Shown here one piece after another: positions 39,203 through 39,742 of a stretch of DNA of 64,000 bases. A program made the translations under genes and the position numbers. The notes under the pieces are model-generated. The model searched no databases. It saw only the letters and a list, made by a program, of their open reading frames with translations, and was not told the origin of the DNA. Position 1 is the stretch's first letter. Each line of letters starts with the position of its first letter. The DNA comes from Escherichia coli (lineage in GTDB: Bacteria; Pseudomonadota; Gammaproteobacteria; Enterobacterales; Enterobacteriaceae), in assembly GCF_003334405.1 (NCBI RefSeq), contig NZ_QOWM01000001.1; one strand, written 5' to 3'.

Positions 39203-39224
39203 TCATTGTACAATGAACTGTACA
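39203..39224 (+). promoter_or_regulatory. yefM-yoeB operator palindromes (autorepression site)
   Basis: TCATTGTACAATGA palindrome plus adjacent CTGTACA half-site just upstream of yefM. Confidence 0.7.
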
Positions 39225-39239
39225 AAAGAGGAGATTGAC

Positions 39240-39491
39240 ATGCGTACAATTAGCTACAGCGAAGCGCGTCAGAATTTGTCGGCAACAATGATGAAAGCCG
39301 TTGAAGATCATGCCCCGATCCTTATTACTCGTCAGAATGGAGAGGCTTGTGTTCTGATGTCACTCGAAGAATACAACTCGCTGGAAGAGACGGCTTATCT
39401 ACTGCGTTCCCCCGCTAACGCCCGGAGATTGATGGACTCAATCGATAGCCTGAAATCAGGCAAAGGAACAGAAAAGGACATTATTGAGTGA
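39240..39491 (+). CDS. yefM: Antitoxin YefM (type II TA)
   Basis: 83 aa from [14 protein letters not shown]; stop overlaps yoeB start (ATGA). Confidence 0.95.
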
Positions 39492-39742
39492 AACTAATCT
39501 GGTCTGAGGAATCATGGGATGATTATCTGTACTGGCAGGAAACAGATAAGCGAATTGTTAAAAAGATCAATGAACTTATCAAAGATACCCGCAGAACGCC
39601 ATTTGAAGGTAAGGGGAAGCCAGAACCCCTGAAACATAATTTGTCAGGTTTCTGGTCCCGACGCATTACAGAGGAGCACCGTCTGGTATACGCGGTTACC
39701 GACGATTCACTGCTCATTGCAGCATGTCGTTATCATTATTGA
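39488..39742 (+). CDS. yoeB: Toxin YoeB (ribosome-dependent mRNA interferase)
   Basis: 84 aa; [18 protein letters not shown]-terminus; translationally coupled to yefM. Confidence 0.95.

Follow-up and report, generated by a model that had tools for sequence, protein, structure and literature searches.

Background

The interval between hisL and yeeZ in the Escherichia coli chromosome analysed here raises the question of which genetic element occupies it, and whether that element is complete enough to behave as its laboratory counterpart does. The interval lies within a 64-kb stretch of DNA (64,000 nucleotides, referred to below as the window), and the initial annotation had assigned it to an intact yefM-yoeB type II toxin-antitoxin module. 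We consider it close to certain (probability roughly 0.97) that the element is the chromosomal yefM-yoeB type II toxin-antitoxin operon, intact and orthologous to E. coli K-12 b2017/b4539. This identity is the best explanation of the locus, and nothing in the sequence speaks against it. The evidence comprises the two proteins, the promoter and operator that precede them, the chromosomal position, and comparison with K-12, with Escherichia whittamii and with several thousand complete E. coli genomes.

Results and discussion

The yefM and yoeB genes and their products

The coding part of the locus consists of the following features:

39240..39491, plus strand: yefM, antitoxin and autorepressor, 83 aa plus a TGA stop (39489-39491)
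39488..39742, plus strand: yoeB, ribosome-dependent mRNA endonuclease toxin, 84 aa plus a TGA stop
39488..39491, plus strand: gene overlap GTGA, made up of the yoeB GTG start (39488-39490) and the yefM TGA stop (39489-39491)

The two genes form a bicistronic unit on one strand, with yefM first, yoeB second and an overlap of 4 nt, and K-12 is arranged alike. Both had been described as full length, and the open reading frames of 83 aa and 84 aa confirm this; the encoded proteins are 100% identical to those of K-12, which bears out the view of the module as intact. Every residue of YefM (83/83) is identical to chain A of PDB entry 2A6Q and every residue of YoeB (84/84) to chain E of that entry, and the YoeB sequence is identical also in the ribosome complexes 4V8X, 6OXA, 6OXI and 6OTR. 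At the nucleotide level, a 701-bp query around the locus matched many E. coli chromosomes at 100% identity, and yefM and yoeB are annotated there. The junction between the genes had originally been given as an ATGA overlap, which proved incorrect: the junction GAGTGAAA carries the yoeB GTG at 39488, and the overlap therefore reads GTGA, as in K-12.

Profile comparisons place both proteins in the expected families. YefM scored 186.6 bits against the NCBIfam equivalog NF008499 (cut-off 121), which assigns it to the antitoxin family, and 48.3 bits against TIGR01552 phd_fam (cut-off 20.8), which assigns it to the Phd/YefM family, and YoeB scored 132.8 bits against TIGR02116, the Txe/YoeB family equivalog (cut-off 51.8), which assigns it to the toxin family. 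In the NCBIfam profile search YoeB remained below the cut-offs for RelE/StbE (TIGR02385, 23 bits vs 27.9) and for YafQ (TIGR00053, 22.8 bits vs 87.25), and it is related to these toxins at the superfamily level only. The residues of YoeB that contact the mRNA and the scissile phosphate are Glu46, Lys49, Arg59, Glu63, Arg65, His83 and Tyr84 (PMC6821326). All seven are kept, E46, R59, R65, H83 and Y84 having been read directly and K49 and E63 following from the 84/84 identity; a check for inactivating substitutions at the catalytic residues found Glu46, Arg59, Glu63, Arg65, His83 and Tyr84 all intact.

An antisense ORF of 64 aa lies within yoeB (39523-39717, minus strand) and is found in E. whittamii too. 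It was rejected as a gene on the grounds that no evidence supports it and that its persistence in E. whittamii stems only from DNA conservation.

Promoter, operator and the start of yefM

The region upstream of yefM contains a compact set of regulatory elements:

39186..39191, plus strand: -35 hexamer TAGTTA of pyy, the promoter of yefM-yoeB; PMC7730913 gives the same hexamer
39209..39214, plus strand: -10 hexamer TACAAT, wholly within the L palindrome, identical to the -10 of PMC7730913
39203..39216, no strand: L (long) operator palindrome TCATTGTACAATGA, primary YefM binding site, the sequence footprinted in PMC1802561
39219..39224, no strand: S (short) operator palindrome with TGTACA core, 12 bp centre to centre from L (PMC1802561)
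39220, plus strand: transcription start G, placed by position from PMC1802561 and PMC7730913
39228..39233, plus strand: Shine-Dalgarno GAGGAG, 6 nt before the yefM ATG, with the spacing given in PMC1802561

The published operator consists of an L repeat, 5'-TCATTGTACAATGA-3', and an S repeat that shares its TGTACA core at a distance of 12 bp centre to centre; L was footprinted by YefM and by YefM-YoeB, and mutation of S weakened repression by YefM-YoeB (PMC1802561). The promoter, pyy, is made up of a -35 TAGTTA, a 17-bp spacer, a -10 TACAAT and a G start, with L covering the whole -10 box, and YefM-YoeB is said to repress this promoter completely (PMC7730913). The window has this arrangement, with 17 bp between TAGTTA and TACAAT and with paired TGTACA-core palindromes, 12 bp centre to centre, lying over the -10 box and the start site. 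The upstream palindrome was reported in the initial annotation as preserved, and TCATTGTACAATGA is indeed exact at 39203-39216. The CTGTACA reported beside it is also present (39218-39224), but the term half-site does not hold, as this is a full 6-bp palindrome, the S repeat of the literature. The interval first delimited for the module, 39203-39742, opens with the L palindrome and closes with the stop codon of yoeB, exactly to the base, and the -35 box (39186-39191) falls 12 bp outside it.

Short AT-rich palindromes are common in intergenic DNA, and at up to 2 mismatches the 14-mer is expected 0.27 times per window by chance, a figure that is not negligible, so that the palindromes might be chance features of the sequence and no operator at all. 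We give this reading virtually no credence. The perfect 14-bp palindrome TCATTGTACAATGA has a sole match in the 64-kb window even when 2 mismatches are allowed, and that match is exact, is spaced from the yefM start codon as in K-12 and has the S core as its partner 12 bp away; the paired TGTACA-N6-TGTACA (39207-39224) is likewise unique in the window, where 0.14 occurrences are expected allowing 1 mismatch. The same operator has been footprinted and mutated experimentally (PMC1802561), and it is invariant in E. whittamii while the stretch farther upstream, 39095-39161, varies. The mechanical ORF list raises a related doubt about the translation start, since it gives 39213-39491 as one ORF of 92 aa, which would make YefM a longer protein beginning at an ATG inside the L palindrome, a start that was also proposed in early annotation. 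In the published analysis the yefM ATG lies at +21, a second ATG at -7 was rejected, and the ribosome-binding site is found 6 bp before the ATG (PMC1802561). Transcription was placed here to start at 39220 because this puts the ATG at 39240 at +21 and the other ATG, at 39213, at -7, and the start of the 92-aa form thus precedes the mapped +1. The over-expressed protein begins at +21 (PMC1802561), the Shine-Dalgarno GAGGAG is positioned 6 nt before 39240, and the NCBIfam equivalog and the crystal chain span residues 1-83 end to end. The longer form has already been refuted experimentally in K-12, whose sequence is identical, and it is hardly conceivable here; the 83-aa YefM starting at 39240 is the form adopted throughout.

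A generic promoter scan returned no plus-strand match at the real promoter, because its -35 TAGTTA matches only 3/6 consensus positions. The single promoter-like match (minus strand, 39582-39554) and the single terminator-like match (minus strand, 39662-39643) that were returned were dismissed as lying at or below chance level.

Comparison with K-12 MG1655 and with related systems

Alignment to the K-12 yefM-yoeB locus, which had been suggested as a check on the module, was carried out for window positions 38950-39830 against MG1655 and revealed 7 SNPs in 881 bp, all of which leave the protein sequences and the defined regulatory elements unchanged. Three are non-coding (39050, 39114 and 39200) and four are synonymous, at 39407 (yefM Arg56), 39470 (yefM Thr77), 39482 (yefM Ile81) and 39520 (yoeB Asp11). 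The SNP at 39200, C in the window and T in K-12, is located in the 17-bp spacer, 3 bp upstream of L and outside the defined elements. The C at this position is common to E. whittamii and many E. coli, for which reason it is unlikely to matter, and the T of K-12 is probably derived. The -35, -10, L, S, Shine-Dalgarno, GTGA overlap and hisL-yeeZ position are the same in both strains, as are the 100% identical proteins. Judged by this comparison, the proteins, promoter and operator are identical to the laboratory K-12 version of a system that is already known and fully described in the literature, and the identity of every component to the studied K-12 operon upholds the original statement that the system is a known one.

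The axe-txe system of the Enterococcus faecium plasmid pRUM is homologous and likewise combines a Phd/YefM-type antitoxin with a YoeB/Txe-type toxin, and its L and S repeats have the same core and its -10 is the same TACAAT (PMC7730913). It differs from the window in its -35 TTGCTT, which makes for a strong promoter, in the location of L in the spacer and of S only partly overlapping the -10, and in an incomplete repression and an extra promoter (PMC7730913). By this comparison the window has the promoter arrangement of yefM-yoeB, not that of axe-txe. RelBE and the RelE-superfamily interferases (RelE, YafQ, HigB) share with the present system the cleavage of A-site mRNA by a small RelE-fold RNase that is neutralised by a labile antitoxin. 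The antitoxin in the window is of the Phd/YefM type (TIGR01552), whereas RelB is a ribbon-helix-helix protein, and YoeB differs from the RelE-superfamily toxins RelE, YafQ and HigB in working as a dimer (PMC6821326).

Chromosomal neighbourhood and 3' end

The gene order is hisD-hisG-hisL on the opposite strand, followed by yefM-yoeB-yeeZ-yeeY-yoeI-plaP, as in MG1655. The module occupies the orthologous position between hisL and yeeZ, and the order matches both MG1655 and strain CP53. Two features flank the operon:

38808-38931, minus strand: His leader RF00514 (Rfam, 131.6 bits)
39747..39765, plus strand: weak AT-rich hairpin ATTCATTC-ATA-GAATGAAT, located downstream of the yoeB stop codon, where the variable segment ends on its right

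The hisL leader peptide, with a run of seven His codons, and the His leader are found at 38808-38959 on the minus strand, divergent from yefM, and the his operon is next on that strand. The His leader alone exceeded the threshold in an Rfam search of 38700-39900, which returned no RNA family within or adjoining the module. On the other side yeeZ starts at 39825, leaving a yoeB-yeeZ gap of 82 bp (39743-39824). The hairpin at 39747-39765 folds at -11.6 kcal/mol, compared with -8.5 +/- 2.6 for shuffled sequences (z = -1.2), and was rejected as a terminator, the difference from the shuffled controls not being significant. Terminator scan and fold test together gave no convincing intrinsic terminator in the yoeB-yeeZ gap, and the toxin-antitoxin transcript may continue into yeeZ.

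Several features were observed elsewhere in the window. The region from tmaR to cobU (~50000-59500) has no match to the CP4-44-like island of strain CP53 (cbtA/cbeA), and the window is about 3 kb longer there. Two adjacent plus-strand ORFs at 51478-52853 resemble a split transposase, and a block of minus-strand ORFs extends over 53505-57550; one protein of this block, of 404 aa, appears by eye to join a DeoR-like HTH at its N terminus to a sugar-kinase-like domain. A long run of plus-strand ORFs covers 1-31642, upstream of the his operon, and going by the known E. coli map it should correspond to the colanic-acid, O-antigen and gnd/ugd/wzz region.

Escherichia whittamii and the distribution of the operator

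With one genome representing each bacterial species sampled, a scan for the exact L+S operator identified a single locus, in E. whittamii, with no match in other genera or in the E. coli representative itself; at this depth of sampling, the operator in its exact form thus seems restricted to Escherichia. The module of E. whittamii lies at the same site, and its YefM and YoeB are identical to those of the window. There are 7 coding differences between the two, all of them synonymous, and an identical stretch of DNA begins at 39162, upstream of the -35 box, and extends into yefM; variation is found in 39095-39161. The restriction of coding changes to synonymous positions and the identity of the promoter-operator next to variable upstream DNA indicate that purifying selection has acted on both proteins and on the operator.

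Presence and absence of the module among E. coli genomes

Alignment with O157:H7 delimits the part of the locus that varies between strains:

39096..39747, plus strand: module segment of ~650 bp with promoter, operator and both genes, the junctions being approximate to a few bases

Homology with O157:H7 stops at ~39095 and restarts at ~39748, and between these points O157:H7 contains ~205 bp of unrelated sequence in which REP-like elements can be recognized by eye. The hisL-yeeZ gap of O157:H7 is 425 bp, without an annotated gene. The whole module region is present in 4212 of 5426 complete E. coli genomes, and in the remainder the match is limited to the final ~53 bp of the query. The alternative allele, covered over at least 80% of its length, was found in 1197 genomes including O157:H7, and the two alleles together account for 5409/5426 complete E. 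coli genomes. As far as these alignments tell, the yefM-yoeB unit is present or absent as a whole, as two alternative alleles at one fixed site with sharp junctions. That the alleles reflect a long-lived balanced polymorphism or the specific exchange of a cassette, as opposed to plain gain or loss with subsequent recombination of the flanking DNA, seems to us quite improbable.

The left boundary of the segment coincides with the midpoint of an inverted repeat at 39088-39110, GCTAAGAGGAC-T-GTCCTCTTAGC, whose 11-bp arms match perfectly and whose loop is 1 nt. The repeat was considered and rejected as a functional site or recombination target, as conservation does not support it: the E. whittamii counterpart (GCTAAGAGGGCTGTCCTCTAACC) is imperfect, and we therefore assign the repeat no function and regard it as probably not functional. 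Separately, among the 5426 matching places one is on a plasmid and one record has only 80-90% identity, and therefore a diverged or relocated copy of the module exists in the genome collection.

Proposed mechanism and physiological role

Since no component differs from its counterpart in the experimentally studied system, the published mechanism was taken as the best explanation of how the operon works. Transcription would initiate at about 39220 from a weak sigma-70 promoter (TAGTTA, 17 bp, TACAAT), and YefM would be translated from the ATG at 39240 and YoeB from the GTG within the GTGA overlap. This overlap suggests translational coupling, in which ribosomes finishing YefM would probably go on to make YoeB. 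A YefM dimer would hold one YoeB with its active site blocked, as in the YefM2-YoeB complex of 2A6Q, and autorepression would follow from the binding of YefM, or more avidly of YefM-YoeB, to L over the -10 box and then to S over the start site, excluding RNA polymerase. Under heat stress, for which this has been reported, Lon protease would degrade YefM and liberate YoeB, and the free YoeB dimer would enter the ribosomal A site and cleave the mRNA there, bringing translation to a halt. Ribosome-bound YoeB is known to act as a dimer that cleaves A-site mRNA (PMC6821326), and Lon-dependent activation of YoeB in E. coli at high temperature is reported (PMC4554461). For the analysed strain we infer toxicity, neutralisation, binding, Lon dependence and autorepression from published work on identical sequences.

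A different view of the module concerns its biological role and leaves the identity of the element untouched: the operon could be intact in sequence and yet silent or physiologically irrelevant in the analysed strain, for example permanently repressed, or a selfish addiction cassette without a role in the stress response. The segment is evidently dispensable, as 1197/5426 complete E. coli genomes, O157:H7 among them, carry the ~205-bp filler instead, and it is disputed what chromosomal type II modules do for the physiology of the cell. The promoter, moreover, is weak (-35 at 3/6) and described as fully repressed by YefM-YoeB (PMC7730913). Against this, the 7 synonymous and 0 non-synonymous differences from E. 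whittamii, together with a promoter-operator identical to that of the window, point to continued selection, and activation of YoeB by heat stress is reported for E. coli (PMC4554461). We regard a silent or irrelevant module as rather unlikely, and hold that the yefM-yoeB module of the analysed strain is likely functional, a view founded on its identity with an experimentally tested system.

Conclusions

The practical gain from this analysis lies mainly in correct annotation, in that the gene overlap is GTGA and the start codon of yoeB is GTG, and in the recognition that this strain carries an intact and well-characterised type II system. In addition, the presence or absence of the module, which is missing from O157:H7 and from about 22% of complete genomes, provides a handy strain marker for E. 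coli.
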